Virus record (IMG/VR): IMGVR_UViG_3300032046_004423
Span: 95,358-109,607 of that record
Length of the DNA: 14,250 bases
From: a virus
Taxonomy: Duplodnaviria > Heunggongvirae > Uroviricota > Caudoviricetes
Strand: one strand, 5' to 3'
Part shown: one piece after another, positions 1 through 14,250 of the stretch
Layout of the letters: each line of letters begins with the position of its first letter
Position numbering within the stretch: position 1 is the stretch's first letter
Notes under the pieces: model-generated
What the model was told of the DNA's origin: nothing
What the model saw: the letters and a program-made list of their open reading frames with translations, nothing else
Databases searched by the model: none
Position numbers and translations under genes: made by a program

Positions 1-207
1 TATATGGACACCCTGTATAACATTTGTCACAAACCCTAAACCCATGCGTGCTAGGGTTCTAAGGCTATGCTGTCCCAATCTCATTGGAACTATAGGATAT
101 ACAATAGAGACGCTATGCCCCCTAGCACACAGATGGTTAGCATACTCAAATATAACTCTAATCCCACCATATAACCCAATGCCTGGTGCTATGAATGTTA
201 TTTTCAT
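1..207 (-). CDS. Glycosyltransferase, GT-B fold / family 4-like, N-terminal 69 aa (runs off the window edge; not in ORF track)
   Basis: Manual translation from ATG at 207: MKITFIAPGIGLYGGIRVIFEYANHLCARGHSVSIVYP..., open to position 1. The MKI-x-F...GG-x-RV...AN-x-L-x-x-RGH-x-V pattern is the typical GT4 N-terminus. ATG overlaps the TGA of the upstream ORF (ATGA, 204-207). Confidence 0.85.
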   Translation of the reverse strand, partial: MKITFIAPGIGLYGGIRVIFEYANHLCARGHSVSIVYPIVPMRLGQHSLRTLARMGLGFVTNVIQGVHI

Positions 208-389
208 AGTTTATTAACCTGCTCCTTGAAGTCAGCGAGCATCTGGCTAACATCATTAGTATCCTCAGGATATAGTGCTAGTTCAAGAGTTCCAGTTGAG
301 TATCTTGTTAGGGCTACAAACAATCCTTCTCCAAACTTCATTACTAGGTGACTCCCGCTAACTTTAATCTCTAACTGCCTTTTTGGCAT
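204..389 (-). CDS. Hypothetical protein, 61 aa
   Basis: AGGAGG 7 nt before ATG (inside the radical SAM 3' end); stop coupled to the glycosyltransferase start. Confidence 0.7.
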   Translation of the reverse strand: MPKRQLEIKVSGSHLVMKFGEGLFVALTRYSTGTLELALYPEDTNDVSQMLADFKEQVNKL

Positions 390-1449
390 TCTTACCTCCT
401 ATAAGCATTCGTGGGTGTTTTAGAAAGTATAGTATATAAGGATAGAAGCTAGTCTCAAAGCTCCAGCGAGTACCCCATGCATTTAGGCACCCTTGGCAAT
501 TCCTGACTATTCCTCGAACTCCTACTGCCCTAGGGCTGTGCCAGAGTTCTGTGGGGGAACTTTCTCTAACATTACCCGCTTTAGTATCCCAAAGACTCAG
601 ACAAGGTACAATATCACCATTACACTGCAGCGCACAGAATGTATCCATAGCAAAACAGTGAAATTTGATAGGTTTGCCTGCCAGCCATTTAAGCCATAGT
701 TCACGGAGAATCGGGTACGGTAATGACTCAACAGCTTTAACCATAGAACCATTATTGCTAGCTAAATCCTTGCCTATATTATCGTAGAATGAGGACTGGC
801 TGTACCACTGCACAAGAAGTTCTATCCCCAGACTTTTAGCATATGTCTTGACATCATCCAGATAAGGTAGTGTATAGTTGCTAAGCGTAAAACCAAATAT
901 AGAGGATACCCTTTCATTCCCGTACTTCTTACTCAGAACTATAAGTTTATGAGATAATCCGTCTATCTTTTCAAAATTACCCTTAACGCCCCTTATCAAA
1001 TCATGACCTTCTCCTACTGCATCTAAAGATAATCCAACTCCCAAGTTGATATTATGCTGAATTGCAAACTCAACTGCACTCATCGCTCTATCAGGTAACA
1101 AGCCATTAGTACTTAAGGTTAAGTTAGCATTAGGAAGAGCTTTATGTTCTGCTAGAAGAATCTCATTGAAATCATCCCTGAGGGTAGGTTCACCCCCAGC
1201 ATTTAGTATGCACCTTACATCCCTAAAAAGTGGGTCACTAAGAGCCTCCTCTATTTCCTCAGGAGTTAATTCATTACCAACTGGTTCTTTACGCCATATA
1301 TCACAGTGAATGCAACGGGAGTTACATCTATCAGTAACCCCAAACCACAGCCATCTCGGTCTGAGTGAATAGCCTATAGCTCGCGGGACTAGATTCTTAA
1401 GCCCGTATCCTAAGTCTGTTAAGCCTTGTGTGATATACTTATTCATCAT
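364..1449 (-). CDS. Radical SAM protein with C-terminal SPASM/twitch-like domain
   Basis: CxxxCxxC motif (TDRCNSRCIHCDIW), GGEP and STNG motifs, C-terminal C-x7-C...NGDIVPC...GNV...CQGC Cys cluster. Confidence 0.92.
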   Translation of the reverse strand: MMNKYITQGLTDLGYGLKNLVPRAIGYSLRPRWLWFGVTDRCNSRCIHCDIWRKEPVGNELTPEEIEEALSDPLFRDVRCILNAGGEPTLRDDFNEILLAEHKALPNANLTLSTNGLLPDRAMSAVEFAIQHNINLGVGLSLDAVGEGHDLIRGVKGNFEKIDGLSHKLIVLSKKYGNERVSSIFGFTLSNYTLPYLDDVKTYAKSLGIELLVQWYSQSSFYDNIGKDLASNNGSMVKAVESLPYPILRELWLKWLAGKPIKFHCFAMDTFCALQCNGDIVPCLSLWDTKAGNVRESSPTELWHSPRAVGVRGIVRNCQGCLNAWGTRWSFETSFYPYILYFLKHPRMLIGGKNAKKAVRD

Positions 1450-1453
1450 CCTA

Positions 1454-2014
1454 CTAGTGAACTACTGCCCTTAAAGCTGTAATTGCCTGCTCAATTGTTC
1501 CCAATCTAGATATAACGTAGAACATCATAACCACAGCTACAACACTAGCACCAACAGCTATATACATTAGCATTCTCTCACCCTTACCAACCTTACCTTC
1601 CTCACCTACACCCTTAACTAAGTTAATTAACCACTGAGGGTCAAGTACAGCAGGTAACTCTTTTGATGATAGTGCTCCGGCTGGTGGATTTTGCCAATTA
1701 AGAGGGTCACTCCTTCCTCTCATGACTAGCGAACACCAAACTGTCTGCTGGAAAGATGATAATATCCTAGGCCATCCTATTGGATAGTCTACAAGCTTCA
1801 TTAAGTCATTCTTAAGTACCCACTCATCACTCCCATCCTTAATAAAGTCATCCTTATAAATCTTTAATAACTTAATACTTAGGGGCCTTCCCTTTTCAAT
1901 AATACAGCACAGATGTCTCCCCTTTATCTTTCCTCTTATAGCAAACTGTAGTACTAGAGGAAAAGACATAAATACAAGTATAAGTAAAACTACTGGCATC
2001 ATTACATTGGCCAT
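1454..2014 (-). CDS. Membrane protein, 186 aa, with N- and C-terminal hydrophobic helices
   Basis: GGGAGG 6 nt before ATG; hydrophobic segments VMMPVVLLILVFMSFPLVLQFAI and MLMYIAVGASVVAVVMMFYVI. Confidence 0.75.
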   Translation of the reverse strand: MANVMMPVVLLILVFMSFPLVLQFAIRGKIKGRHLCCIIEKGRPLSIKLLKIYKDDFIKDGSDEWVLKNDLMKLVDYPIGWPRILSSFQQTVWCSLVMRGRSDPLNWQNPPAGALSSKELPAVLDPQWLINLVKGVGEEGKVGKGERMLMYIAVGASVVAVVMMFYVISRLGTIEQAITALRAVVH

Positions 2015-2090
2015 TAAAAACCTCCCTTTTAAATTCCATAACTAAACTCATAGACTAACTCACTTCCTTTATAAACTTCCTAAATGCTAA

Positions 2091-2435
2091 CTATGATAGT
2101 ACCTTCTGGAAGATAGATACGAAGGTCATCACGAGTCCCCATACAAACATAGCCATTAAAGGGGTCCAAATTATCCACTTAACATAAATCCAGCCTCCCT
2201 GTATAAAAGCAAAGTCCCAAATAGCTGCCTTAAATAGTGCTCCAAAGTAGTTTGGAACAAAAGCGATTATATCAAGCATACCCCAAGACTCCTCACTTCC
2301 TACTTGCCTCCAAAGAAGTAAGGTATTAAGCGTACTTTGATGACTTGAACCAATTGTTCCCTGTTCTATAATTAAGCCTAGTATAGTCCCAACTACAAAT
2401 AAGAACACAAAGAAAGCTATATATTTCGGTGGCAT
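2091..2435 (-). CDS. Small integral membrane protein, 114 aa (putative virion membrane protein)
   Basis: AGGAG SD; start overlaps the upstream stop (TAATG); 2-3 hydrophobic helices (YIAFFVFLFVVGTILGLII; WIIWTPLMAMFVWGLVMTFVSIF). Confidence 0.75.
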   Translation of the reverse strand: MPPKYIAFFVFLFVVGTILGLIIEQGTIGSSHQSTLNTLLLWRQVGSEESWGMLDIIAFVPNYFGALFKAAIWDFAFIQGGWIYVKWIIWTPLMAMFVWGLVMTFVSIFQKVLS

Positions 2436-5263
2436 TACATACTCCTTGAGGCAACTAGATATGCACTACTAAATATAGCATAAACTATAGGTATCCACCA
2501 ACCAACACCACCAGTACTAGCCCCCACTGCTAAGCCAATACCAGTAGCTATAACAGCTAATAGAGCACTACCAGTCGCGACTGCTACTCCTACTCCTATC
2601 ATAATAGCCGCAAATATCATTAGAACTTCATATAGTGTATTCGTAGTCCACCCAAGTTCAACAGCTGCAGGCTGAATCAAGTCGAAAGGAAGCCAGCCTA
2701 TAGTAGTAATTTCCTCCTCCTGTTCCCATAAAGTAACATTGCCAGGTAATGGGAGTACAACAGGTAACTCACCCTCTTCAGTTGGTGCTGATATATAAGT
2801 AGTCATACTTTTTAAACCTCCCACTACTATAGTCAGGTTAGAATTTGAACCCCAAGCTATAGTACCATTATTACTACCTACTCTATCAACCAAGGTTGTA
2901 CCACTTATTATCGTATTTGGTTGGAACAGTAATTTTTGCACCCCATTTACAGTAATGCTAGTATAGTTCATATAAGGCATTACATTATTCTCTATCAACT
3001 TCCAGTTAGTAGAGTTAGTAGCAACACTCCAGTTGCCTAGACTAGTACTGCCCCCTTGAGTACCATCTATCCAAATAGAAAGATATCCCCCATGCCCACT
3101 AGCAATTGTACCATTAGCCATTACTTTGATTATATGCTCTCCACCTGAAATCCCTGTAGCAGTAGCATTTATTGTAGTAGCCGTTTCATTACACCCAAAG
3201 TCAAATTCAAGGAGGTCGATGGAACTTGGATATGTAGCAGTATTGTGAAATTTAATCCTTGCTTTAGTCACAGAATATGTCCCCCCCAGACTCTTATCAA
3301 TCCACATACCATCTGTAAAAGTACCATTATAAACATCGTGCCAAGCACTACTATAGTATACATCTAAATCCACAAGGTCTACAAAACCATACGAGTTACT
3401 AGTATAAAATCTCAGCTTACTACAGTTTGTAGCAGTAATAGTTAGATTCAAAAAGCTTCCCCACGAACTCGCAGGGATATCAGGCTCAGCTCCCACTACA
3501 CCGAAAGCATCATCATAAGCATAAGTCTCAAGACCCCATTTACTATCTGCATCTTCATATCCAGTTGGTGAAGTCCAGTTTATAACACCAAGTATTGATG
3601 AAGTTATATTACCAGTACCACTCACATATGTTCTAATAACATTCTGCTTATAACTTAAATTCCCAACAACAGAGGTATTGACATATCCATCCTGCTCAAT
3701 AATAAAGTTATTTGCTAGTCCTAAAGTAGCACTATCTGCAACTGTTACATTACCACCATTACCAGTTATTAAACCAAATGAAGGATTAGCAGGACTATAT
3801 CCTGTCTCAAACCTATACTGCCTCTGCTGATTAGCTATCAAACTAGGAATAAAGACACCAATCTTATCATCAGCTACCATATATAATCCTTCAGTTGTCC
3901 CCTCAAACATCCTGGTATCTAAACAAGTACTACTCAAGTAACCAAAATCTATAGCTTGCGCGGTACCGAAAGGAACCAAAGCTGGAACACCAATTCTATC
4001 AGTAACCGATATATCAATTATGGTTATTTCAGACCTATAGGCCCCAGAACTATATATTACTGCCTCAGTAAGAAGCTGAACAGTAGTTCCATATCCCGTA
4101 CCTGCTGAGTTAATAGCATAAGCCCTAACACGGTAACTCGTATCTGGACTTAAACTAGCTATAACTTTAGTATAAGAACCGTTGCCAAAACTACCGCTAT
4201 CATAAGCTATGCTACTAGAAGTAGTAGGATCCCCCGAGGTACCCTCCATATAGCAGAAACCTCTACTAGTACAATTCTCACCACCAGTATCAGTGATATT
4301 TCCATTACCTGTAGCATAGGTTGTTCCTATACCAGATACCTCCTGAGTAGTAACTGTAGGTATTACTATCCCCGGTGTCTCATAACTTACTATAACTAAA
4401 CCGGAACCACCAGCCATACCAACCTGTAGTTCTCCACCACCACCCCCACCCCCACCTGTATTTACTGTTCCCGCTACTGCTGCAATTGGTCCACCACCAT
4501 CCTTACCTGCTCCTGCTCCCCCACCACCTAGACCACCAGGAGCTACAGCTGTAATTAAATTGTGGGTACTACCTCCACCACCACCAGCATAGTAAACAGA
4601 TGAACCAGAAATCGAACAAGCCGTCCCATTACCTCCCTTACCTCCCCCTGCTGCACCACCATTAGCACCAACTACACTAGCTCCACCTCCACCACCTGCA
4701 CAATGGTAGGTAGCGCCAGAGCCAGCCCCACCATCGTATCCCTGCCTCGGAGAAATATAGTCAGCATCCCCTCCAGCCCCAGATTCTTGCCCTCCACCTC
4801 CACCAGAACCCCCAGGAGATCCTGCATGGTTAATATAGTATCCTCCTCCACCACCCCCGATTGCAGTTAGTATATCAAATACAGAATTACTGCCATTAGT
4901 TCCTTGACCTGAACTTGCACCAGCACCTCCATCCCCAACTGTAACAGTTAATTCCGCTTCAGGTATAACAGTATAAGTCGCATTATAAATAAAACCTCCT
5001 GCACCACCTCCACCACCCTCGCCTGTAGTATCATTACCACCACCACCACCCCCACCTGCTACTACTAAAACTTTTACTGAAGTTACTCCAATAGGTACTG
5101 TCCATTTACCCCCAACAGGAGTAGAGTTAAAAGCTACAATAGTTTCTCCCGAAGCAAAAGTAGAACTGCTAGGAATAGCTAGTAACGTTCCAACTAGCAT
5201 ACCTACTATAAGTAAAGTTGGTAGTAGATACCCTACAGGTCTATTTAGCTTTTTAAACATCAA
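2435..5263 (-). CDS. Large secreted, C-terminally membrane-anchored Gly-rich adhesin/spike-like protein, 942 aa
   Basis: Signal-peptide-like N-terminus (...AIPSSSTFA|SG); Gly-rich domain about aa 42-294 (VKVLVVAGGGGGG...GGSGLVIVSY); FN3-like domain about aa 302-399 (PTVTT...ATGNGNITDTGG...RGFCY...YRVRAYAINSAGTGYG); DUF2341-like stretch (YRSEITI...LDTRM); beta-rich S/T/N region; C-terminal TM helices. GGGGAGG SD. Confidence 0.8.
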   Translation of the reverse strand: MMFKKLNRPVGYLLPTLLIVGMLVGTLLAIPSSSTFASGETIVAFNSTPVGGKWTVPIGVTSVKVLVVAGGGGGGGNDTTGEGGGGGAGGFIYNATYTVIPEAELTVTVGDGGAGASSGQGTNGSNSVFDILTAIGGGGGGYYINHAGSPGGSGGGGGQESGAGGDADYISPRQGYDGGAGSGATYHCAGGGGGASVVGANGGAAGGGKGGNGTACSISGSSVYYAGGGGGSTHNLITAVAPGGLGGGGAGAGKDGGGPIAAVAGTVNTGGGGGGGGELQVGMAGGSGLVIVSYETPGIVIPTVTTQEVSGIGTTYATGNGNITDTGGENCTSRGFCYMEGTSGDPTTSSSIAYDSGSFGNGSYTKVIASLSPDTSYRVRAYAINSAGTGYGTTVQLLTEAVIYSSGAYRSEITIIDISVTDRIGVPALVPFGTAQAIDFGYLSSTCLDTRMFEGTTEGLYMVADDKIGVFIPSLIANQQRQYRFETGYSPANPSFGLITGNGGNVTVADSATLGLANNFIIEQDGYVNTSVVGNLSYKQNVIRTYVSGTGNITSSILGVINWTSPTGYEDADSKWGLETYAYDDAFGVVGAEPDIPASSWGSFLNLTITATNCSKLRFYTSNSYGFVDLVDLDVYYSSAWHDVYNGTFTDGMWIDKSLGGTYSVTKARIKFHNTATYPSSIDLLEFDFGCNETATTINATATGISGGEHIIKVMANGTIASGHGGYLSIWIDGTQGGSTSLGNWSVATNSTNWKLIENNVMPYMNYTSITVNGVQKLLFQPNTIISGTTLVDRVGSNNGTIAWGSNSNLTIVVGGLKSMTTYISAPTEEGELPVVLPLPGNVTLWEQEEEITTIGWLPFDLIQPAAVELGWTTNTLYEVLMIFAAIMIGVGVAVATGSALLAVIATGIGLAVGASTGGVGWWIPIVYAIFSSAYLVASRSM

Positions 5264-6282
5264 CCAAACCTCCCCAGTATGAATGTAACACTAAACATTA
5301 GTACAGCCATAAAAGCAGCAATAAAGGTAATAGTCAAGGATAGTATCCCGATAATATTCCCAACAAATAAGAATGGTATACTTACAGCAATAGCTACTGG
5401 TACCGAGTGAGTAGCTATGAATATCCTACCAGCTAGAATAAAAAATAGGATAGACAAACCAAGCCCCCCTACTACACTACCCATCCCATTCTTTCCAGTA
5501 ACCCATACTCCCAAGCCCTCAAGTGCAGTTGCTAATCTAGCCCCCTCTCTACTTGTCAATGTATCCTGGTAAGTATTATTATATACCGGATCCGTATACT
5601 CAGGGTAAGTAGAAGCTACCTGAAAGATATCTGGGCATATACTATCTAGTCCAGGAATTGCCTCCTTGAACTTTACCATCCCAACAGAATTAAGCTTATC
5701 ACCCGAAGAGAGTAAAGTTATATTTCCCCAAGCATCCTCAAGTGATCCAGCCAGCACAATACACCAGTCAGCTAAATATAGTCTCGTTTCAGAAACAGAA
5801 CCCCCCTCAAGCCAGTTACTAGCTGTTAAGGTTACAGTTCTCATATTAGCACCCTCAGTTAAAGTAGGGAAATACGAGGGATTACCTACAACCCTAACTT
5901 TTAGCTCGTCATCTAACTCATAACCAAAACTAACTACCTGAGCTGCAGTTAGATACACCGAAATAAAGTTATACTGGTAATAATTAAGGGGCATATCAGG
6001 CCCCTTAATAGTATTATTCCAAATGCCAACTAGGAACGTATCCGAAGGATCCTCCCCAGGGTCAACAGTATAATTTAGGTCATACTCAACGACAAACAGC
6101 ATATCGCCACTTTCCCATAGTCCCCTGTAAGCTTTAACAGACTCAATATATATACTGTTAGGATTTCCTATAGTAGCATAAGCTGGTGTAGCTGCAAATA
6201 GTACTACTACCAGAACTACTAAAGGTAGTAGTTTATAGAGCAAATTCCTTACTCTCAAGTTCAACTCCAGACTGTCTAACAT
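5260..6282 (-). CDS. Secreted/membrane protein, 340 aa, with signal peptide and about three C-terminal TM helices
   Basis: KLLPLVVLVVVLFAATPAYA| resembles a signal peptidase I site; C-terminal hydrophobic helices; stop overlaps the start of the 942-aa gene. Exact start uncertain (overlaps the upstream gene by 50 nt). Confidence 0.78.
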   Translation of the reverse strand: MLDSLELNLRVRNLLYKLLPLVVLVVVLFAATPAYATIGNPNSIYIESVKAYRGLWESGDMLFVVEYDLNYTVDPGEDPSDTFLVGIWNNTIKGPDMPLNYYQYNFISVYLTAAQVVSFGYELDDELKVRVVGNPSYFPTLTEGANMRTVTLTASNWLEGGSVSETRLYLADWCIVLAGSLEDAWGNITLLSSGDKLNSVGMVKFKEAIPGLDSICPDIFQVASTYPEYTDPVYNNTYQDTLTSREGARLATALEGLGVWVTGKNGMGSVVGGLGLSILFFILAGRIFIATHSVPVAIAVSIPFLFVGNIIGILSLTITFIAAFMAVLMFSVTFILGRFG

Positions 6283-6556: not shown

Positions 6557-6578
6557 TTTAACTAATTACCTCCTATAT

Positions 6579-7115
6579 TTACATTAACCACTTTCTTTTC
6601 CTTTTCCTTCTCTCTTCTGCGTCTACAGTAGTATCCCCAGTAGTACTAACTAGTCCCTTTTTCTTTAAGTTTTCAATAGCAATATCAATTTGGTCCCTAG
6701 TTAAACCAGTAACCTGCGTCATATCCTCATAAGTATTGTGGCCCTCAATTATTGCATCAAGGACTTTATATTCATCCGTCGCCTTAGATAACCAGCTGCC
6801 ATCCTCCAACTTAATATTTTCACCCCTAAACTCATTGAAACCCTCAATGCCTAGTCTGCTTAACATCTCCTGCTCGTCAGGAGGTAGAGCATTGTACTCT
6901 TCTCCTTTAACAAACTCCTCATTGGGTAGTACAACATTTCCTTTAGCCACCCACTCAGTTTTCCCTCTCTCTTTACCTATATATCCACCCCAACTCTGAG
7001 CTGCCTCAGGACTAATATCCTCCCTAACTGCTGTACTAGTTAGAAAGGTTTCTAATTGCCTCGGATCAATACCTTTTACCACAAACTTCACCTCCTTATC
7101 TTCCTTACTTACCAT
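6579..7115 (-). CDS. Winged-helix protein, paralog 3 (178 aa) with basic C-tail
   Basis: DEYKVLDAIIEGHNTYEDMTQVTGLTRDQIDIAIENLKKKGLV; ends EERRKRKRKWLM; shares the DPRQL motif with the 107-aa neighbour. Confidence 0.8.
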   Translation of the reverse strand: MVSKEDKEVKFVVKGIDPRQLETFLTSTAVREDISPEAAQSWGGYIGKERGKTEWVAKGNVVLPNEEFVKGEEYNALPPDEQEMLSRLGIEGFNEFRGENIKLEDGSWLSKATDEYKVLDAIIEGHNTYEDMTQVTGLTRDQIDIAIENLKKKGLVSTTGDTTVDAEERRKRKRKWLM

Positions 7116-7303
7116 AGTTTAGTCTTCCCTTTCTTTCCAGGTATATAAAGGTGTGCATTAGTAATAAGGGAATCAGGGTGTCTTACTCCTTTAGGTACCA
7201 ACTTCCCAAAAACCTTAAGAACCTTCCCAACGTTCTCTGTAGACTTCCTTCTTCTCTCTTCCCTAACAGTTTTTATATACTCTCTCATCAACTGTTCATC
7301 CAT
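7109..7303 (-). CDS. Small basic hypothetical protein, 64 aa
   Basis: Fits the gene packing (7-nt overlap with the downstream gene, abuts the upstream stop); K/R-rich. Confidence 0.65.
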   Translation of the reverse strand: MDEQLMREYIKTVREERRRKSTENVGKVLKVFGKLVPKGVRHPDSLITNAHLYIPGKKGKTKLW

Positions 7304-7507
7304 CTACTTAACCTCTCTTTCCTCAATAACCAAGCCTTCAGGCAGAATAATAATTGGGTTACCTTGTCTTACAAGTGAGCGCTCAACAACATAACCTCTC
7401 TTCTCCTCAACTATCTTTGCAGAAAAACCTCTTTCAAGAATCTCTCTAGCTTTAGAACCAGCTCCGCTTCTAGACCAGGCGAATTTAACTGGGATAAACT
7501 CAAGCAC
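7304..7507 (-). CDS. Hypothetical protein, 67 aa
   Basis: Same strand, tight packing, purine-rich AGAGTAGATAGG upstream of the start. Confidence 0.6.
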   Translation of the reverse strand: MLEFIPVKFAWSRSGAGSKAREILERGFSAKIVEEKRGYVVERSLVRQGNPIIILPEGLVIEEREVK

Positions 7508-7524
7508 CTATCTACTCTTTCAAC

Positions 7525-7794
7525 TTATAGATCTTCTGGCCTAGTTGGATTATAAATCCAATCAGGTTGACTTTCATACAACTCAGGATAAATTCTAAGC
7601 ATCAGCTTTATAAGATCCTCCTCCTGGCCAGAAAGCATTATTACCTCGTGATCTGGAATATCTATCTTACCTAGCTTCTCTACTAAACTCCTTGCTGCCT
7701 TCTCATATCCTCTAACTGGATGCCCCTTAACAAATTCTCTAAGAATAGGAAGAGCAGCCCTTTTTTCCTCTTTAAATACTGTCCAAAAGGCCAC
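7525..7794 (-). CDS. Hypothetical protein, 89 aa
   Basis: GTG start directly after the stop of a 32-aa basic ORF, GAGG 9 nt upstream. Confidence 0.65.
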   Translation of the reverse strand: MAFWTVFKEEKRAALPILREFVKGHPVRGYEKAARSLVEKLGKIDIPDHEVIMLSGQEEDLIKLMLRIYPELYESQPDWIYNPTRPEDL

Positions 7795-7893
7795 CTATCT
7801 GGACCTCAAGGACCTCAAAATACTTCTATGTTTAGCTTGGGCTCTTCTAGTGCTAGGTATCCTACTAAGTTTACTACGTTGCTTTCTCATCAT
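7795..7893 (-). CDS. Putative 32-aa arginine-rich, protamine-like peptide (not in ORF track)
   Basis: Manual translation MMRKQRSKLSRIPSTRRAQAKHRSILRSLRSR*: 9 R, 3 K, no acidic residues. Fills the gap between two genes; TAG abuts the next GTG; only a weak AGGA SD. Confidence 0.5.
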   Translation of the reverse strand: MMRKQRSKLSRIPSTRRAQAKHRSILRSLRSR

Positions 7894-7906
7894 AATCCTA
7901 ATGCTC

Positions 7907-8182
7907 TCACGGTAGAGTTAGTGTACTCTGCGTTTCCTCCGAAGCAGCACACTTAGCGTGAACTAGTCCCCCCACTCTAGGCTGAAAAATTATATCCCTA
8001 ATAGTAATATCTTTATCACAGATAGGACAGGTCCCAATATACTCCCTACACTTTAAGCAAGTATACTCAGTCCCAAAAATGGCACGCAAAAATCTCTCCT
8101 CAGGAGTACCTCCCTCAACATAACTTGCCCTACTGCACTTAGAGCAAATAGTTCTTATCTTTCCTTTAGGCCAACCTCTCAT
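7907..8182 (-). CDS. Zinc-finger protein, 91 aa (two predicted Zn sites)
   Basis: CSKC...CLKC...CPIC...HAKC; start overlaps the upstream stop (ATGA). Confidence 0.75.
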   Translation of the reverse strand: MRGWPKGKIRTICSKCSRASYVEGGTPEERFLRAIFGTEYTCLKCREYIGTCPICDKDITIRDIIFQPRVGGLVHAKCAASEETQSTLTLP

Positions 8183-8433
8183 ACTTTATGAACTGCCCTT
8201 CTCACTCCTTTATCTAAGGACTTATAACGCCTTATTAACTGAGCTTTTACCATCTGCGTTGCCCTACTAGAATTACTTGTAGGTAACTCAAAAATTTCAG
8301 CCTTTTGACTCAAGTTAGCATCATCCATATAGTGCTGAGCTAGCAACTCAGAAGAAAAAGACCTGCCTCCTATAATGACAGGTCTTAAACTACCATCCTT
8401 TGCCCTAGTATAGTCAACTACCCAGTAGTACAT
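8179..8433 (-). CDS. Hypothetical protein, 84 aa
   Basis: ATG at 8433 overlaps the TGA of the hidden 45-aa ORF (TGATG), so it is preferred to the track's GTG at 8436. Confidence 0.7.
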   Translation of the reverse strand: MYYWVVDYTRAKDGSLRPVIIGGRSFSSELLAQHYMDDANLSQKAEIFELPTSNSSRATQMVKAQLIRRYKSLDKGVRRAVHKV

Positions 8434-8570
8434 CACTTTACTATAACTACTTTACCAGGTTTAGTAGAGTCAATTAGCATCAATATCCTACTACAACGGC
8501 AAAAACCAATGCTTGACCAAAAAGCTACCAAACTACCACAGTCTGGACACTTAAGAATTACAAGACTCAT
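8433..8570 (-). CDS. 45-aa Cys-rich Zn-ribbon-like protein (not in ORF track)
   Basis: Manual translation MSLVILKCPDCGSLVAFWSSIGFCRCSRILMLIDSTKPGKVVIVK*; AGGAGG directly upstream; CPDC...CRC; stop coupled to the next ATG. Confidence 0.75.
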   Translation of the reverse strand: MSLVILKCPDCGSLVAFWSSIGFCRCSRILMLIDSTKPGKVVIVK

Positions 8571-8579
8571 ACCTTCCTC

Positions 8580-11500
8580 CTACTTTACTAGTTTAACTCT
8601 CCTTGAAGTTTGCCTACCCAACTTTATACCCTTTACAGTTGGAGTTCTTAATACCTCCCTAGCCCCATATCTTACTGCTTTTTTACCCGCAAGCTGTATT
8701 TTCTTTTTCCTCATACTTAAAGGCTCAGGCATATTTAGTATCAAACCAGGTACCACCCATTTTGCTCCACTTAATACCTTACCAATACCACCCCCACTAT
8801 AGCCTCCACCCATACCAGGAAATCCTAGAGGAGGTGGGAATGGTAAAGGTAGTCTTGGTAAGCCATAACTAGGTAGGACCGGTTCAGGTTGAGTTATACC
8901 AATTTTAGGTGGAGATATAACAGGAGGTGTAGTCGTAAAGCCAACTACTACTGGAAAAGGTTCTGGAACCACCATAGGCTTAGGTATTACAGGTTCCTCA
9001 GTTAGGGCCTCTGGCACAATAGGAATAAGTAACTCAGATTCAGGCATTAGAGGATGGACTGTTACAGTCCCAGTAATAAGAGGTGTATAAATTCTAGGAA
9101 GAGTTACAACAGGTGTAAAAATTTCAGGTTCATGTTCTGGTTTAGCTACTCCAGGAATAACAAAAGGCTTACTAGGAATCTTTTCAGGCATAATAGGACT
9201 AAAAGGAGTTTTTATCCCAGGCTTAACTCTAGTAGGTATAGTAACTCCTATTCTAGCTGGAATAGTAAGTCTTGGGAGAGTTTTAGTCCAATCCATAGTT
9301 CTAGTTCCAACTCCAAGTTCTCCTCCCAGACCTCCCCAACTATATAAAGGACTACCATATCCTCCTCCTTCTAGAGGATAACTGAACTCCCCACTATACA
9401 GAACATCAGGACCTCTATATAAACCCCCACCCCCTTTTGTAGAACCACCACCAAAGGTCATACCACCTAGCCCAGGCATAGGTCCCCGCTCAAAAGGATA
9501 CCACCATTCTGGGATAGGTGGGCCCGACTTAGGCCCCCCACCTTTTCCATACCATTCCTCAACAGGCCACATAGAAACAGTTCCCTGAGCATAGGCTGTA
9601 GGTCCTTCTATAGGATAACTAGACTTAAGGAATTTATACTCAAGTGGGGATAGAACCTCCCCATATCTAGTAAAAGCAACTTCTTTAGGAGCACCCAACG
9701 ACTCTGTAAGACTAACAGGTTGAGGTCTATAAGCTGCAACAGGTTTAAAAGGAAATAACTCACTAGAAGGCCTATAGATATCACCCGAAAGCTCCTCAGC
9801 AGTAGGTAACTTTATCTCTTCCGTATAACGAGGCTTCTCTCCCTTACTAAGTTTTACCAGCTTTGCCCCGAATCCAGTAACTCTAGTATCACTCCTAAGA
9901 ACAGTACCAATAGTCTCTGAGATTGGTACTATCCTTCCTCCAAGAGGAGTAATAGCTTCCCCATAACTAATCTTTCCTTTTGCTACTCCCAATCCCTCAG
10001 CTACTAACTCAGGACTAACTTTTGCTCCTATTCCTTTACTAGCCCAGAACTTCTCAATTCCTCTTAAACCAACTGCTCTAGGTCCAAAGAGACTTCCTTG
10101 TAGTCCAGGAAGTAAGGTAAATCCTACAGTACCTATCTTATGTCCTATACCTGGCTGCTTCCATGTTAATACACCAGCAGCAGTTACTGGCCCAAAATAA
10201 GGAAATAGTGTAGTAAGAGACTTAGCCCCATACTGGGGATATAACTGTGAGGCAACCGTAGAAGGAGCAAGTATCTGATACATACCCCCTACTAGAAACT
10301 TAGGTACTGTAGGCCACTCCTGCATCTTCTCTAAAGGAGGCATAAGATACCTCTCCGTTCCTTTTCCCAAAGCACCTACTATGCTAGGCTGATACTGCAT
10401 CTCACCCAAAACACTCTCCCTAATACTTGCCATCACTTGTGGGTCATAATCTAAACTAGCCTGGGCTAAAAACTCATCCTTTCCGATATCTAATTCTAAT
10501 CCTTGGGCAGCAGCTTCTCTAGCCTCCCGGTCATATAGAGAAGACGCATCACTCATATACTCCTTATAGCCTTGACTATACTGAGAACTACCCTTATACT
10601 GCTCCCATGCCTTAGCAATATTACTCTCAATAGGTTCCGGTTCAGATAAGGCACCCAGTGCAGTCGCACTACCAATAGTCGCAACTGTAGGGATAGTAAG
10701 TACAGTTGTAGTTGCTTTTACCCCAGTTAAGAATCCAGATAATGGTCCAGCAAACCTCCCAAGACTTGGAGAAATTTCAATAGGTGCCCTTCCCCATTTC
10801 AGGAATGATGATACTGGCCCAAGTGCTTTAACTAAAACTGGAGCACCCATAGCCTCACCAGTACCAAGTGCAAGCCCTCCAGCAAATATCATAGGCTGAA
10901 TAGGAGACTCCTTCCACCATGCCTTAGTCTGTAACATATTGGGACTCGGACTATAACCTCCACCCCAACTACCAGGAGGAGAAATACCCCAAAGAGCATT
11001 TCTTACTTTTTCTAACCAAGTAAATCCAGGTTTAGAACCATAATACTCATCTGCGTGAATCACCGGTAAACCAAACTGACCTGCCTGGGATAAACCAGCA
11101 AGAGAAAAGAGATTAACAGGATGACCTCCAGCTAACTCTATCTGCTTAGTAGGAGCCATAGTTCCAGACCTATATTCTAAGGCTTTATCAACATCCTCCT
11201 GTCTAAAACCAAAACTGACTAACTGAGTTGGGGTTAACTCACTTAATGCTCCAACTAAATTATAACCCCCTCCACTAGTCTTATAAGATTCAATCTTAGC
11301 TTCCTCAGGAGTTACTATCTGCCAACCTCCCTGCGTATTCCTATAAGTAATACCACCTTGGTTAAGATACTCCACACCCCCACTCTCAAAAATTCCCTCA
11401 GGTCCCTTAACCAAATAACCCGTAGTAGGTCCAGTTATAGTAATAGGAGTTTCCCCACCATGTTCCTGGTAGTAACTAAGAAAAGCTTGCTTTTCAGCCT

Positions 11501-11741
11501 CAGTAGGCTCACCAGGTACTACTACAGTAGGAGGTTTATTACTAGTACCTCCACCCAATCCCGAACTAGGAATTACTTGAATCCCATGAGCTTTTGCAAA
11601 TGCAAGAACCTGTGCTGGTCCCCAACCACCACTTGTTACTAGACTACCCCCTCCAGTAACTGGATGGTACTCAATTCCATGGGCTTTTGCAAATGAAACT
11701 ACTTGGGCTTGAGTCCAACCACCACTAGTTACTTGTGCCAT
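8580..11741 (-). CDS. Large 1053-aa low-complexity protein (Gly-rich N-terminus, central hydrophobic segments, Pro-rich region, basic C-tail); putative internal virion protein
   Basis: AGGAGG SD with long (13-nt) spacer; uninterrupted ORF; no catalytic motif recognised. Confidence 0.8.
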   Translation of the reverse strand: MAQVTSGGWTQAQVVSFAKAHGIEYHPVTGGGSLVTSGGWGPAQVLAFAKAHGIQVIPSSGLGGGTSNKPPTVVVPGEPTEAEKQAFLSYYQEHGGETPITITGPTTGYLVKGPEGIFESGGVEYLNQGGITYRNTQGGWQIVTPEEAKIESYKTSGGGYNLVGALSELTPTQLVSFGFRQEDVDKALEYRSGTMAPTKQIELAGGHPVNLFSLAGLSQAGQFGLPVIHADEYYGSKPGFTWLEKVRNALWGISPPGSWGGGYSPSPNMLQTKAWWKESPIQPMIFAGGLALGTGEAMGAPVLVKALGPVSSFLKWGRAPIEISPSLGRFAGPLSGFLTGVKATTTVLTIPTVATIGSATALGALSEPEPIESNIAKAWEQYKGSSQYSQGYKEYMSDASSLYDREAREAAAQGLELDIGKDEFLAQASLDYDPQVMASIRESVLGEMQYQPSIVGALGKGTERYLMPPLEKMQEWPTVPKFLVGGMYQILAPSTVASQLYPQYGAKSLTTLFPYFGPVTAAGVLTWKQPGIGHKIGTVGFTLLPGLQGSLFGPRAVGLRGIEKFWASKGIGAKVSPELVAEGLGVAKGKISYGEAITPLGGRIVPISETIGTVLRSDTRVTGFGAKLVKLSKGEKPRYTEEIKLPTAEELSGDIYRPSSELFPFKPVAAYRPQPVSLTESLGAPKEVAFTRYGEVLSPLEYKFLKSSYPIEGPTAYAQGTVSMWPVEEWYGKGGGPKSGPPIPEWWYPFERGPMPGLGGMTFGGGSTKGGGGLYRGPDVLYSGEFSYPLEGGGYGSPLYSWGGLGGELGVGTRTMDWTKTLPRLTIPARIGVTIPTRVKPGIKTPFSPIMPEKIPSKPFVIPGVAKPEHEPEIFTPVVTLPRIYTPLITGTVTVHPLMPESELLIPIVPEALTEEPVIPKPMVVPEPFPVVVGFTTTPPVISPPKIGITQPEPVLPSYGLPRLPLPFPPPLGFPGMGGGYSGGGIGKVLSGAKWVVPGLILNMPEPLSMRKKKIQLAGKKAVRYGAREVLRTPTVKGIKLGRQTSRRVKLVK
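11568..11732 (-). repeat. Two-copy direct repeat (93-nt period) at the 5' end of the 1053-aa gene
   Basis: VTSGGWTQAQVVSFAKAHGIEYHP (aa 4-27) vs VTSGGWGPAQVLAFAKAHGIQVIP (aa 35-58); DNA shares gcttttgcaaatg and caaccaccact. Confidence 0.9.
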
Positions 11742-11758
11742 TTACGACTATTAACCTC

Positions 11759-12310
11759 CTATTTTAGATATCTAATAAACCCTTTCTTAACTAACTGAGA
11801 AAGTGCTCTTCCTACTTCCTCACCTGTTAAACCAGTAGCTATCTCTAACTGACTAGAATCAGTATATCCATCAACGATTGCTAAATAAACAGCTTTTTCC
11901 TCAGTAGGCATATTAGCTGCAGCCCCTCCCTGAAATGCCCTACTAACATCCTCTTCACCCCACTCATCTCCAGGTTGTAATACTGTTCCTAAGTAACTAC
12001 CTCCCCCAGCTACTGCCCTTTCCTCCTGTGTCATATTTCTCCACTCTTCTCTCCCCGCTATCTGTGTCTGCTCTGTTCTATAAAACGGGCTTGCCTCCAT
12101 CATATATGCTCTATTCGCGCCAGCAACCGCTGCACTCACCTCACAAGGTGATAGTCCAGCTGCTTCTGCTTGACTCTTTGCAGAACTAACTCCACTCTGC
12201 CAGTTCTGATAGTCCTGTTTCGCTGCATTTATACTTTGTTGGGCCTTTGTAGGGTTACTACCCCCAACAGGTCCCCCACCCAAACTAGAAGCAATATTTC
12301 CCCATGCCAT
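11759..12310 (-). CDS. Winged-helix protein, paralog 2 (183 aa), low-complexity N-terminus
   Basis: C-terminal MPTEEKAVYLAIVDGYTDSSQLEIATGLTGEEVGRALSQLVKKGFI. Confidence 0.8.
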   Translation of the reverse strand: MAWGNIASSLGGGPVGGSNPTKAQQSINAAKQDYQNWQSGVSSAKSQAEAAGLSPCEVSAAVAGANRAYMMEASPFYRTEQTQIAGREEWRNMTQEERAVAGGGSYLGTVLQPGDEWGEEDVSRAFQGGAAANMPTEEKAVYLAIVDGYTDSSQLEIATGLTGEEVGRALSQLVKKGFIRYLK

Positions 12311-12314
12311 AATA

Positions 12315-12890
12315 CTACGCCTTTATATAACCTTTACTAAGTAACCAGTGAAAAGCCCTACCTATCTCCTCATTTGTCAATCCTGTAGCTACTCCCAAAC
12401 TATCAGGACTAGTATAACCCTCCTGTATTGCCTGATAAACAGATTTCTCATTAGCAGGCATACCAGAAGGTATACCAACAGGTGTATCAGGCATCCGAGA
12501 TGCCTGACGGTTAGGCATAGTTCTAATCTTTAAATAGTTACCAGCTATTCCTCCTCCTCCCCCAAACTTTGGTAACAAACCACGCATAGACCCAGTTGAG
12601 ATTGCTACCCCTCCAGATATATTCCTAGCTGGTACTAACCTCAGCTTTGCCCCCTCCGACAAACCAGGTATTTTTTTACTACCAGCACTCCACTCATTAC
12701 TGGGCCTTCTTGCCTCTACCTCAGTAGGTTTTTCTGGGTGTGGAAAAGTCTTTACCCAACTAGGATTTTCTCCCCCCGGGCCAACAAAACCCCCACCTCC
12801 TGGTTTAGAATTTGAAGTTGGTGTTTGTGCTCCCAATCCATACCGTGGGTCCATATCATGAGCAAGTACTGCAGAAAGTTTACTTACCAT
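12315..12890 (-). CDS. Winged-helix protein, paralog 1 (191 aa), Gly/Pro-rich N-terminus
   Basis: AGGAG SD; C-terminal MPANEKSVYQAIQEGYTSPDSLGVATGLTNEEIGRAFHWLLSKGYI. Confidence 0.8.
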   Translation of the reverse strand: MVSKLSAVLAHDMDPRYGLGAQTPTSNSKPGGGGFVGPGGENPSWVKTFPHPEKPTEVEARRPSNEWSAGSKKIPGLSEGAKLRLVPARNISGGVAISTGSMRGLLPKFGGGGGIAGNYLKIRTMPNRQASRMPDTPVGIPSGMPANEKSVYQAIQEGYTSPDSLGVATGLTNEEIGRAFHWLLSKGYIKA

Positions 12891-12927
12891 TTCTAGTATC
12901 CTCCTATAACAAAATTTTTAATAGTAG

Positions 12928-12955
12928 AATGGGGAGTATATTTCAACTCCCCATT
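12928..12955 (-). terminator. Stem-loop after the capsid-like gene (terminator or mRNA-stabilising hairpin)
   Basis: Perfect 10-bp inverted repeat AATGGGGAGT (12928-12937) / ACTCCCCATT (12946-12955) with 8-nt loop, 12 nt past the TAA. No clean U-tract follows. Confidence 0.55.
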
Positions 12956-12967
12956 TACTGACTAGTG

Positions 12968-13133
12968 TTAACCCTGGCCTCCTATCCATGCTACTGCCCC
13001 TAATAGGATAACTGCGACGAAAACGTATGGCAGAACACCAACTAGAGCTGCTAAACCAGTAGGACTAGTAATAGCTGCAGTAGTCTGCAGGATGACCGGA
13101 ACCAGACTTACACCTACCACGATGGAAATCATG
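12968..13133 (-). CDS. Exon 2 of an intron-split small hydrophobic protein; putative spindle-shaped-virus-type major capsid protein (not in ORF track)
   Basis: C + ATG ATT TCC...GGT TAA encodes MISIVVGVSLVPVILQTTAAITSPTGLAALVGVLPYVFVAVILLGAVAWIGGQG*: two hydrophobic helices with a polar T/S/P/G linker. It begins right after the predicted intron omega-G. Confidence 0.75.
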
Positions 13134-13322
13134 CAACCTTATCCCAGGTTTTCCTGAGGGTTGGACTTTATCTTCACCCATTACTGGGTGTCCCGTGTAA
13201 AGTCTCTACACTTGCCTGTCTTTCAACTGCTAGCTCGGTATTACCATAAGTATCACTACCCTTAGGCTTCACCGACTTAGCGGGATTTATTACCTCTCAA
13301 TTACTCAAGAGGAGCACCACTT

Positions 13323-14072
13323 CTAGTATAAACCAAAGGCTTCTAGTTTTGCTAGAAACTTAGAACTATCAAGCCCAGTGTGCCTTCTAAGTCCAAGCTC
13401 ACATTCCCGAAGCACCAGGCATCTATAACCAGCCTCCCCATATAGATACATTCTGGCTACTTCCTCCAACTCATCCCTATGCCAGTAATCACCAAAAAGT
13501 TCAATGCAATCCTTTACACCGTCAGTTCTATAGAAATCAGGTACCTTTCCTGCTACTACTAGCTCACCCTCATTGAACTTCCACTTACCTGGACTTACAA
13601 AGTCTAGCAAATCCTTTAGCCAAGATTCGGGATAGTTAGGATGTAAACTACCAGCCCCAGACCTCATTGCAGCTATCTGGCTATTCTTAAACTCTGGATC
13701 TGACCACAGGTTATTATGAACCCTACTTAGCCTTTCCCTATAACCAGGCTGACTCCACATTTCCTTAGCAGTCCTGGAGAAATCCTCTGAGGACCTTGTA
13801 GATGGAACACCAAACTTCGCTTCTGAGATTGCATCTCCCCAAGTTATGTCTCTGCCTGTAAGAGCCTTAGATATAGCCTCATTTCTCTCAGCCGCAAACT
13901 CCTGCCAAGAACCCATAGACTCAAGAACGAGGTCAGAATAGATACTAGCATCTGGGAACATTGCCCGGTACTCAAGGACAGTACCTATTCCATGAGCAGA
14001 CTGTAGATGCGTACCAGTAATCTGTTCATAACTCAGACCACAAAGCCTGCACTCTACTAAGTACTTTCCCAA
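13323..14072 (-). CDS. Intron-encoded putative homing endonuclease, Vsr-like/EDxHD-type PD-(D/E)xK nuclease with N-terminal C2H2 Zn finger
   Basis: TTG start with GGGGG SD; CRLC...HLQSAH...EYRAMFP N-terminus; helical repeats (ISKALTG/ISEAKFG; WSQPGYR/WSDPEFK); C-terminal PNYPE...VPDF...IELFGDYWH...LVLRECE; lies between P1 and the ribozyme core. Confidence 0.82.
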   Translation of the reverse strand: MGKYLVECRLCGLSYEQITGTHLQSAHGIGTVLEYRAMFPDASIYSDLVLESMGSWQEFAAERNEAISKALTGRDITWGDAISEAKFGVPSTRSSEDFSRTAKEMWSQPGYRERLSRVHNNLWSDPEFKNSQIAAMRSGAGSLHPNYPESWLKDLLDFVSPGKWKFNEGELVVAGKVPDFYRTDGVKDCIELFGDYWHRDELEEVARMYLYGEAGYRCLVLRECELGLRRHTGLDSSKFLAKLEAFGLY

Positions 14073-14095
14073 CCATTCCCCCTAGATTGTAACCT

Positions 14096-14106
14096 GTAGC
14101 AGTCAT
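14096..14106 (-). other. Predicted internal guide sequence (IGS) of the intron
   Basis: Minus-strand AUGACUGCUAC is the exact 11-nt complement of the ligated exons GUAGCAGU|CAU. Confidence 0.65.
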
Positions 14107-14127
14107 TAAAAGTCGATGCCGATAAGT

Positions 14128-14141
14128 ACTGCTACTAACAC
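14128..14141 (-). CDS. Predicted exon 1 of the capsid-like gene (GTG TTA GTA GCA GT)
   Basis: GGGAGG SD 9 nt upstream of GTG; joins exon 2 in frame (GT|C = Val). The alternative junction GGC AT|C at 14116 is also in frame. Confidence 0.55.
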
Positions 14142-14159
14142 ATGCTAAAACCTCCCTTT

Positions 14160-14215
14160 AACATTACCGAGTAATATAACTAGTACTCTTCCTATGCAAC
14201 AAGTATAACATAGCA
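14160..14215 (-). promoter_or_regulatory. Candidate promoter region upstream of the capsid-like gene
   Basis: AT-rich non-coding region. Contains an extended -10-like TGTTATACT (14202-14210), a TTATAT box near 14174-14179 that could equally be an archaeal TATA box, and a short palindrome ATTAC-CGA-GTAAT (14163-14175). Confidence 0.3.
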
Positions 14216-14250
14216 AATCATTCAGTGCCATATTCATATTATTCACATCT

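Follow-up and report, generated by a model that had tools for sequence, protein, structure and literature searches.

The 14,250-nucleotide (nt) stretch analysed here, referred to as the window, comprises bases 95358-109607 of the 109,607-bp viral contig IMGVR_UViG_3300032046_004423 (handle G000), with a GC content of 40.7%. It is best read as the late, virion-forming operon at one end of an incomplete linear double-stranded DNA (dsDNA) genome of at least 110 kb, belonging to an uncultivated, non-tailed virus. At the head of this operon stands a split gene for a hydrophobic 63-amino-acid (aa) protein of the SSV1 VP1/His1 VP21 class of capsid proteins, interrupted by a group I intron that harbours a homing endonuclease gene. 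Our confidence in virus, capsid class and intron taken together is high and refers to this model as a whole, not to host or virion shape, which are graded separately below. Judgement is evenly divided on the broader proposal that the contig and its relatives stand for an undescribed but widespread family of linear dsDNA bacteriophages with large genomes (60-110 kb), whose virions would be non-icosahedral, derived from membrane and built from a capsid protein of the fusellovirus/His1 type together with a pI-like ATPase. In the literature search, no paper was found describing this virus group.

Predicted intron-split capsid gene and its product

The structure of the split gene follows from comparison with intron-less relatives. 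L008, the corresponding locus in the relative G353 (IMGVR_UViG_3300017971_002799, 87.8 kb), holds an uninterrupted 68-aa capsid gene, reading ...MLVAVLIGIMISIVVGVSLIP..., and joining position 14116 to 13133 in the window gives the 63-aa product MLVAVLIGIMISIVVGV..., with DNA that is colinear across the junction with L008, L014 and L017. The exact junction is therefore fixed by the intron-less relatives, and since the exons end and start at 14116 and 13133, the intron measures 982 nt with the 249-aa endonuclease reading frame inside it. The original prediction, made from the letters alone, had pointed to a tiny two-helix capsid-like gene and to a group I intron, and both hold in kind. The 54-aa open reading frame (ORF; 12968-13132, with the segment MISIVVGV... 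starting at 13132) is, however, only exon 2 of the full 63-aa gene, and the 198-nt Rfam core, at 52.3 bits against a gathering score of 50 bits for RF00028, is only part of the longer element with the nuclease ORF.

The 5' exon ends in U (U14116) and the last intron base is G (G13134). For P1 we propose that the exon sequence GGCAU/CG (the slash marking the splice site) pairs with UGGUGCU, a guide sequence immediately 5' of P2; the ORF of the endonuclease is placed between the 5' splice site and this guide sequence. The same intron occupies the same codon in L038, an 84-kb ENA contig, where RF00028 scores 69.8 bits and the endonuclease is 67% identical. We infer from these sequence features that the intron is self-splicing: the late operon would be transcribed from a promoter at about 14200-14230, the capsid mRNA would have to be spliced, and the intron would remove itself so that the 63-aa protein could be made in quantity.

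Transcription signals around the gene are in keeping with a promoter at this position. The extended -10-like box that had been noticed in the sequence was found again at 14202-14231, and counterparts consisting of TTGACA/TTGATA, a 17-nt spacer, TGn and TAnAnT precede the capsid gene by 50-130 nt in L012, L014 and L038, the window copy being weaker than these. Canonical sigma-70-like sites were also seen at the divergent early regions of G000 and G353. Since genome-wide counts of sigma-70-like sites and of hairpin-plus-T terminators are not clearly above background, which weighs against too strong a reading of such motifs, only the conserved sites before the capsid gene are counted as evidence. 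The hairpin that comes after the capsid stop codon has a comparable counterpart behind the capsid gene of every relative that was read (L008, L012, L014, L017, L018 and L038). A sigma-54 assignment for TGGCAC...TTGC upstream of the capsid gene was rejected, its spacing being 3 nt too long. The sequence (A/T)ATAATATGAATATGGCA occurs both upstream of the capsid gene (window 14215-14245, minus strand) and upstream of the gene at 75671-76039 (G000 contig about 76060-76110, minus strand), and may be a shared late operator or promoter element.

Profile and fold comparisons place the spliced product beside the capsid proteins of spindle-shaped viruses. End to end, the L008 orthologue aligned in BLASTP with mature SSV1 VP1 (31% identity, E 5e-6, 64 aa) and with His1 VP21 (30% identity, E 4e-6, 64 aa), while a profile of 52 sequences gave hhalign probabilities of 96% for SSV1 VP1 (E 4e-9) and 88% for His1 VP21 (E 3e-6). 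For 8 of the 10 family members tested, the top PHROG was phrog_11172, the SSV1 VP1 family (best E 2.3e-6). The AlphaFold2 model of the 68-aa L008 orthologue is a helical hairpin (helices 2-31 and 39-66) with a predicted local distance difference test score (pLDDT) of 91, and the first rank among 350,542 PDB chains in Foldseek was taken by 7xdi_A of SSV19 (template modelling (TM) scores 0.77/0.76, root mean square deviation 2.4 over 66 columns, probability 1.00). The next fold matches at the top of the list had TM scores of at most 0.56; because the protein is short, the E-value for 7xdi_A was only 0.1. A likeness of the small protein to spindle-virus capsid proteins, proposed as a test of the original prediction, was thus found in both profile and predicted fold. 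An exhaustive HMMER search returned 119 cluster representatives at E 1e-3 or better, all of them metagenomic, and the Atlas neighbours of the capsid protein carry PF25665 and PF06281.

Several points weigh against this assignment. For PF25665 (His1_capsid), the capsid genes from G354, G001 and G002 scored 14-16 bits, compared to a cut-off of 27, and those of G000 and G353 gave nothing; PF06281 (VP1_VP3) gave nothing at the right place, and exon 2 had no Pfam match. Moreover, composition alone can make two-helix hydrophobic proteins match one another, and one relative weakly matched a holin PHROG (E 0.24). Because the curated Pfam models were not reached, we file the 63-aa protein as a putative new, distant family within the SSV1 VP1/His1 VP21 class, on sequence and modelled fold, and not as a member of either Pfam family. 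In many capsid homologues (among them P0017, P0021, P0025, P0028, P0039, P0064 and P0066), a conserved C-terminal domain of about 130 aa is fused after the two helices, with the motif ..NNLD.LLGI....DWY(I/L)VDKHP...FKVVGLHK.D...VY(I/L)LGK, and some of these proteins end with a second capsid-like helix.

By fold, the intron-encoded endonuclease resembles a class known from bacteriophage introns. Its model, built from ten homologues (pLDDT 71 overall, 82-91 in the core), matched both chains of the I-Bth0305I catalytic domain (3r3p_A and 3r3p_B) at ranks 1-2 of the PDB fold search (probability 1.00, TM score 0.70 by target, 24% identity), with Vsr (1vsr) at rank 5, in agreement with the EDxHD-type nuclease of the original prediction. 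Matches came from the fold search alone, as no Pfam family was found for the 249-aa protein and the PDB sequence search was empty. In the ten homologues P178, D179, E191, G194 and H198 are invariant and D195 nearly so, and the motif reads IELFGDYWHrDE. Shorter paralogues stand free elsewhere in G000 (contig 5579-5827, minus strand, 46% identity) and in G353 (27590-28009, plus strand, 31%), so the nuclease family is not confined to the intron.

Judging from the sequences of relatives, the capsid gene appears to be a recurrent homing target. About four insertion sites were recognised within a capsid coding sequence of less than 200 nt, and up to two introns occur in a single one of 195 nt. The latter is found in L012 (2381-2990; JGI 3300045411, a 17-kb contig), whose two group I introns (Rfam scores 76.2 and 74.6 bits) are about 204-206 nt long and 60-70% alike; they are separated by a 27-nt middle exon (ILLGAVAWI) and followed by a 15-nt last exon (GGQG, stop). 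The L012 splice junctions are uncertain by a few bases, and with a simple cut the intron would end in A instead of G. The family database proteins P0003, P0004, P0005, P0010, P0024, P0040 and P0072 are capsid ORFs that read through into introns, and the gene after P0004 encodes an HNH_3 endonuclease. The endonuclease would spread the intron to intron-less genomes during co-infection, and such homing would explain why the same intron sits at the same site in relatives and other introns at other sites of this highly conserved gene.

Phage group I introns such as those in T4 td/nrdB, the SPO1 DNA polymerase gene and recA of Bacillus thuringiensis phage 0305phi8-36 likewise combine a ribozyme with a mobile endonuclease in a highly conserved, highly expressed gene, and I-Bth0305I of phage 0305phi8-36 has the EDxHD catalytic fold in common with the window endonuclease. 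In contrast to these, the target here is the gene for a 63-aa membrane-type capsid protein, the endonuclease is encoded between the 5' splice site and the internal guide sequence, and up to two introns are found per 195-nt coding sequence (L012). No paper on group I introns in spindle-virus capsid genes was found in the literature search. A structural protein gene of less than 200 nt in which one or two group I introns can occupy any of about four sites offers an unusually compact natural system for studying homing and splicing, whatever the host.

Genome context and host

G000 is linear according to IMG/VR, with a CheckV completeness estimate of 82%, and its genes fall into three strand blocks (minus for 1-27 kb, plus for 27-70 kb and minus for 70-110 kb). 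About 35 colinear genes at 25-55% identity are common to G000 and G353. Pfam and PHROG scans covered about 140 ORFs of G000 and 77 of G353, mostly those of 95 aa or more. They revealed a PolA fused to a UDG-like domain, a protein-primed PolB, SNF2 and UvrD helicases, Rad52-like, YqaJ-like and RusA recombination proteins, an ATP-dependent ligase, Ro60/TROVE and SPFH proteins, and glycosyl- and methyltransferases. A full 7-deazaguanine set was also present (FolE, QueD, an intein-containing QueE-like radical SAM protein, QueC and QueF), and the FolE/QueD/QueC/QueF genes predict 7-deazaguanine modification of the viral DNA. The QueE-like radical SAM gene with its intein (Intein_splicing, PT-HINT) lies at contig 56071-57918 on the plus strand of G000, which has two QueC-like genes, and the Ro60/TROVE-vWA protein is encoded at contig 49406-50707 (plus strand); over the whole contig, there was no Y RNA, no tRNA and no Rfam family beyond the intron.

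The termini of the relatives are informative on genome form. G353 ends in a perfect 96-nt inverted repeat (1-96 versus about 87586-87681), which together with the protein-primed PolB argues for a linear, protein-primed genome. No terminal inverted repeat was found in G000, in keeping with its completeness estimate. In addition, four independent assemblies of a relative of about 60 kb (L014, L015, L016 and L036) stop 170-190 nt ahead of the gene for a 77-aa Sigma70_r4 protein, 2.3 kb before the capsid gene, and this shared end suggests a true genome terminus. The family can be described by linear genomes of 60-110 kb with protein-primed PolB, inverted terminal repeats, SPO1-like PolA and a pI/Zot-like ATPase. 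Combined with intron-invaded capsid genes and a bacteriophage-like gene pool and promoters, a linear genome of this size with PolA and protein-primed PolB is what is distinctive here.

On promoter architecture and gene pool, the host is moderately more likely to be a bacterium than an archaeon. PolA matches 2,194 phage records, of which SPO1-like Bacillus phages cover it best, and among the matches listed no named organism or host is archaeal. GerE/LuxR, Sigma70_r4, DnaB and HTH_17 genes occur in relatives. Recombination genes of the RusA, Rad52 and YqaJ types lean the same way, as do homing endonucleases of the EDxHD and HNH kinds and the pI/Zot-like ATPase. A bacterial precedent for the capsid class comes from a preprint of October 2026 (10.64898/2026.09.15.751708) describing SSV1-VP1-like proteins together with a pI-like ATPase in the integrative elements IME1 of Dehalococcoides; a bacterial phylum whose envelope is wall-less and archaeal-like may therefore also have this class. 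The Dehalococcoidia-like host put forward in the original prediction draws its only support from this preprint.

A serious competitor, if a less probable one, is that the same virus with the same capsid class infects an archaeon (e.g. Bathyarchaeia or a methanogen) and has acquired phage-like replication genes from the bacteriophage pool. In that case it would join the large archaeal viruses of spindle shape such as the itzamnaviruses and tepeuviruses of ANME-1 (48-100 kb), spindle-type viruses that combine a structural with an enzymatic arm and have QueCDEF genes (PMC9894754). Up to 2026, archaeal viruses were the only known source of this capsid class (PMC9796341, PMC9894754), and it has been treated as archaea-specific (PMC9796341), which weighs against a bacterial host. 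So do features of the genomes themselves. N-x-S/T sequons are strongly enriched in the 942-aa adhesin of the window (25 observed versus 9.3 expected from shuffles, z 6.1), and short anticodon-loop insertions occur in tRNA-like genes of G353. The winged-helix domain of the window proteins weakly resembles DUF2250 and TFIIE_alpha, and a 73%-identical capsid gene (L017/L037) sits on a 15.4-kb contig binned in a Bathyarchaeia metagenome-assembled genome (MAG). On the other hand, PolA, DnaB, GerE, Sigma70_r4, RusA, the EDxHD/HNH endonucleases and the sigma-70-type promoters are bacterial or phage hallmarks, and of archaeal replication and transcription genes (MCM, PCNA, TFB) none were seen.

The conflict of host signals had already been apparent from the window alone, and each of its components was borne out: a group I intron in the mRNA for the capsid protein, a nuclease of EDxHD type, an extended -10 box and an enrichment of sequons, the last with the restriction that the excess is confined to the 942-aa protein.

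Assignment of a host by binning was tried and rejected: the two GTDB matches sit in the Bathyarchaeia MAG and in a Bacteroidetes MAG, on purely viral or tiny contigs. Since another relative falls in the Bacteroidetes MAG, binning is uninformative, and the same kind of mis-binning is warned of in the IME1 preprint (10.64898/2026.09.15.751708). The Bathyarchaeia contig is wholly viral without host genes, and no spacer-like match to it was found elsewhere in that MAG; only 1 of 351 Bathyarchaeia genomes gave a strong capsid-profile match, with weak ones in eight others inside ORFs of about 220 aa. The Bacteroidetes-binned contig has strong Shine-Dalgarno sites, which clash with an assignment to that group. 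As to habitat, the sample identifiers led to one IMG project and to nothing further. As regards the tRNA-like genes of G353, those at 12676-12872 (minus strand) and 23883-24000 (plus strand) carry insertions of 103 and 40 nt, too short for group I introns and with no clear bulge-helix-bulge; their D-arms look like those of bacterial class II tRNAs, which could have a bearing on the domain of the host. A tRNA-Met lies at 23807-23881.

Spindle-virus capsid proteins serve as a marker of archaeal viruses for metagenomic contigs, and here the same class heads the late operon of phage-like genomes. If the bacteriophage reading is true, the 'archaea-specific' spindle capsid is also used by bacterial viruses with phage-like genomes, with the capsid gene as a hotspot of group I homing, and a capsid class that crosses the domain boundary would change both contig classification and the view of virion origin. 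Otherwise, archaeal viruses took up a complete phage-type replication arm as well as group I introns.

Virion form and comparison with known viruses

A spindle morphology is suggested by the capsid class. The hydrophobic capsid protein would insert into the cell membrane and, with the pI/Zot-like ATPase, wrap the genome into a lemon- or spindle-shaped or otherwise non-icosahedral particle, which would display on its surface the 340-aa protein and the membrane-anchored 942-aa adhesin, the latter probably glycosylated. The DNA would be bound or accompanied by the winged-helix proteins and by the large, Pro-rich basic protein, and the glycosyltransferases, methyltransferases and radical SAM enzyme would be placed to modify the membrane proteins and the adhesin. 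Replication would probably start from inverted terminal repeats by the protein-primed PolB, together with the SPO1-type PolA, and release would probably proceed without a head-tail packaging machine. The original interpretation as a spindle-type virus is supported overall, by the likeness of the small protein to spindle-virus capsid proteins and by the flanking 95 kb, where a replication and nucleotide-modification arm was found in place of terminase, portal and HK97 genes or ordinary chromosomal genes; morphology itself we infer from the capsid class.

The likeness to fuselloviruses (SSV1, SSV19) extends beyond the fold. Their VP1/VP3 proteins (PF06281, phrog_11172) are also hydrophobic helix-loop-helix proteins of 60-75 aa when mature, with a conserved L-P near the end of helix 1 and (L/V)LP..F at the start of helix 2, as in the window protein, and their capsid gene likewise heads a structural operon, followed by a gene for a DNA-binding protein and one for a large anchored end-filament protein or adhesin. 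In contrast to fuselloviruses, the window protein stays below the Pfam cut-off and lacks an N-terminal propeptide, the capsid gene is split by an intron, and the genome is 6-7 times larger and linear instead of circular, with PolA and protein-primed PolB, no integrase found and possibly a bacterial host. His1 (Halspiviridae) has a two-helix capsid protein, VP21 (PF25665), 30% identical over its whole length. It too possesses a linear genome with inverted terminal repeats and protein-primed PolB, and signal-peptide/C-terminal-anchor proteins and a GT4 glycosyltransferase are encoded downstream of its capsid gene. His1 differs in its 14.5-kb genome and haloarchaeal host and is without PolA, queuosine-type modification genes, introns and a Zot-like ATPase. 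The small genomes of Fuselloviridae and Halspiviridae (14-24 kb) do not fit the present viruses, which have 88 to more than 110 kb with PolA and about 200 further genes.

Two further groups were compared by description only. The Itzamnaviridae and Tepeuviridae of ANME-1 (PMC9894754) are similar in size (48-100 kb), capsid class, structural and enzymatic arms and QueCDEF-type genes. They are, however, linked to archaea by CRISPR spacers, the itzamnaviruses are circular with an RNA-primed PolB, and introns are not reported in PMC9894754. IME1 of Dehalococcoides (10.64898/2026.09.15.751708) also combines an SSV1-VP1-like protein with a pI/Zot-like ATPase and is without head-tail genes. It is integrative and circular, with 21-28 kb and a lambda-type repressor, whereas the present genomes are linear, 4-5 times larger (88-110 kb) and have their own polymerases.

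A particle that is not a spindle, built by the small hydrophobic protein and the pI/Zot-like ATPase as a filamentous or pleomorphic form and extruded through the membrane as in IME1 or inoviruses, seems unlikely, yet it deserves to be weighed. The 222-aa P-loop ATPase is conserved between G000 and G353, and its only family matches are Zot PF05707 (1e-4), phrog_197 (6e-5) and phrog_1675 (3e-4), including M13 protein I. In the IME1 preprint (10.64898/2026.09.15.751708), virus fractions rich in filaments are linked with VP1-like proteins and a pI-like ATPase, and a rod-shaped ancestry has been proposed for spindle capsids (Wang et al. 2022, as cited in PMC9894754). However, the ATPase matches are weak (E 6e-5 to 3e-4) and restricted to the N-terminal half, with the gene lying 8 kb downstream of the window and 22 kb from the capsid gene. 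The nearest solved structure is the capsid protein of the fusellovirus SSV19, and 88-110 kb is far above any known filamentous virus of bacteria.

It is very improbable that the virus is a tailed phage whose head-tail genes are too divergent or lie in the missing 18%, with the small protein as a holin. Apart from the weak holin PHROG match in one relative, this would draw on the Gly-rich domain of the adhesin, which matches PHROGs including tail-fibre-associated families, and on the automatic labelling of Atlas clusters as Uroviricota. The absence of head-tail phage genes noted for the window extends to the other 95 kb, as the scans described above detected no terminase, portal, HK97 capsid or tail families in G000, nor any in the 96%-complete G353 at E 1e-6 or better. 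The late operon begins with the gene for the small protein, which has the strongest promoter in front of it and a hairpin behind it, as for a major structural protein, and the best profile and fold matches of the small protein are spindle-virus capsid proteins. Least credible of all is a cellular surface or glycosylation locus or an integrated provirus: glycosyltransferases, methyltransferases, radical SAM and an anchored adhesin do recall a surface-polysaccharide island, and a 13-kb relative, G354, is labelled provirus by IMG/VR, but no ribosomal, tRNA or housekeeping genes and no integrase were found over the 109.6-kb contig, G353 has inverted terminal repeats with protein-primed PolB, and the four 60-kb assemblies end at the same point. 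The provirus option left open by the original prediction can be dropped, the window being the end of a free viral contig without host genes.

Gene layout and remaining features

The features of the window are listed in Table 1. All plausible ORFs (1-14250) are on the minus strand, tightly packed and nearly abutting, in accordance with the single packed cluster and gene order first described. Because the window is the upstream end of the last minus block, the contig ends only about 110 nt before its first gene. Read 5' to 3' on the minus strand, the capsid gene with its intron is followed by the 191- and 183-aa winged helix-turn-helix (wHTH) proteins, the 1053-aa protein, six small genes, the 178- and 107-aa wHTH proteins, the 340-aa membrane protein, the 942-aa adhesin, two transmembrane proteins, the radical SAM-SPASM gene and the start of the GT4 gene.

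Table 1. Features of the window (window coordinates) and the basis of each call
Feature	Position	Strand	Basis
Promoter-like site before capsid gene: ATGGCA, 18 nt, TGtTATACT (extended -10)	14202..14231	-	same layout before capsid gene in L012, L014, L038
Capsid exon 1, 26 nt, GTG start, encodes MLVAVLIGI; strong Shine-Dalgarno AAGGGAGG upstream	14116..14141	-	colinear with intron-less L008, L014, L017
Group I intron, 982 nt, after codon 9	13134..14115	-	RF00028 and comparison with intron-less relatives
Homing endonuclease, 249 aa: N-terminal CxxC...H...H DNA-binding region, C-terminal Vsr-like EDxHD nuclease domain	13323..14072	-	fold match
Ribozyme core (Rfam RF00028, model positions 1-253)	13142..13339	-	52.3 bits, E 5e-11 to 5e-12; fold z-score -3.8
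Capsid exon 2	12968..13133	-	spliced product is a 63-aa two-helix hydrophobic protein
10-bp hairpin directly after capsid stop codon, weak T tract; terminator- or stabiliser-like	12928..12955	-	read from sequence
wHTH paralogue 1, 191 aa: Gly/Pro-rich N-terminal part, C-terminal winged helix	12315..12890	-	shared motif Y.AI.EGYT....L...TGLT.EEIGRA...L..KGYI
wHTH paralogue 2, 183 aa: same C-terminal winged-helix domain	11759..12310	-	ORF translation
1053-aa protein: Pro-rich C-terminal third, very basic tail	8580..11741	-	ORF translation, position conserved
Six small genes, 45-91 aa; two CxxC zinc-finger proteins (8433-8570, 7907-8182)	7109..8570	-	weak RING-like Pfam match
wHTH paralogue 3, 178 aa: C-terminal winged helix	6579..7115	-	wHTH-PRTase_assc 8e-5, DUF2250, TFIIE_alpha, all below curated cut-offs
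wHTH paralogue 4, 107 aa	6233..6556	-	kept before membrane protein in G353
340-aa membrane protein: N-terminal signal/anchor, ectodomain of about 220 aa, C-terminal block of several transmembrane segments	5260..6282	-	homologues 68% identical in L009, 40% in G353
942-aa putative adhesin/receptor-binding protein: signal peptide, Gly-rich domain, sequon-rich ectodomain, C-terminal transmembrane anchor	2435..5263	-	PF21722 1e-27; phrog_2295 3e-45
Two membrane proteins (114 aa, 186 aa), each with N- and C-terminal transmembrane segments	1454..2435	-	conserved in G353
Radical SAM enzyme with SPASM domain, 361 aa	364..1449	-	PF04055 3e-17, PF13186 3e-8
61-aa ORF (204-389) and first 69 codons of GT4 glycosyltransferase	1..389	-	Glycos_transf_1 6e-28

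Among 50,697 phage records, no match was found by megablast of the whole window or by tblastn of the capsid protein and the 340-aa protein, and tblastn of the adhesin returned one irrelevant fragment only. In Pfam and PHROG nothing was found for the 191-, 183-, 1053-, 340-, 114- and 186-aa proteins, and in Atlas the 340-aa protein falls into unnamed viral clusters only. The four wHTH paralogues have one C-terminal domain in common and unrelated N-terminal parts. Large counterparts of the 1053-aa protein, of 1767 aa in L008, 1560 aa in L014 and 1166 aa in L012, are likewise encoded after the capsid gene. The transmembrane segments of the 942-aa protein span residues 9-37 and 875-920.

At the far end of the operon, the GT4 gene runs past the window (contig 94488-95564, 358 aa). 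The radical SAM-SPASM gene adjoins the 61-aa ORF and the two small membrane proteins, between the adhesin and the glycosyltransferases (window 204-1449, minus strand), and its product may act as a maturase that modifies a peptide or protein component of the virion. In the 84-kb relative L038, the structural block encodes an 813-aa protein with a polysaccharide deacetylase domain, PF01522 (9629-12070, plus strand), which may be an entry enzyme that modifies the cell envelope.

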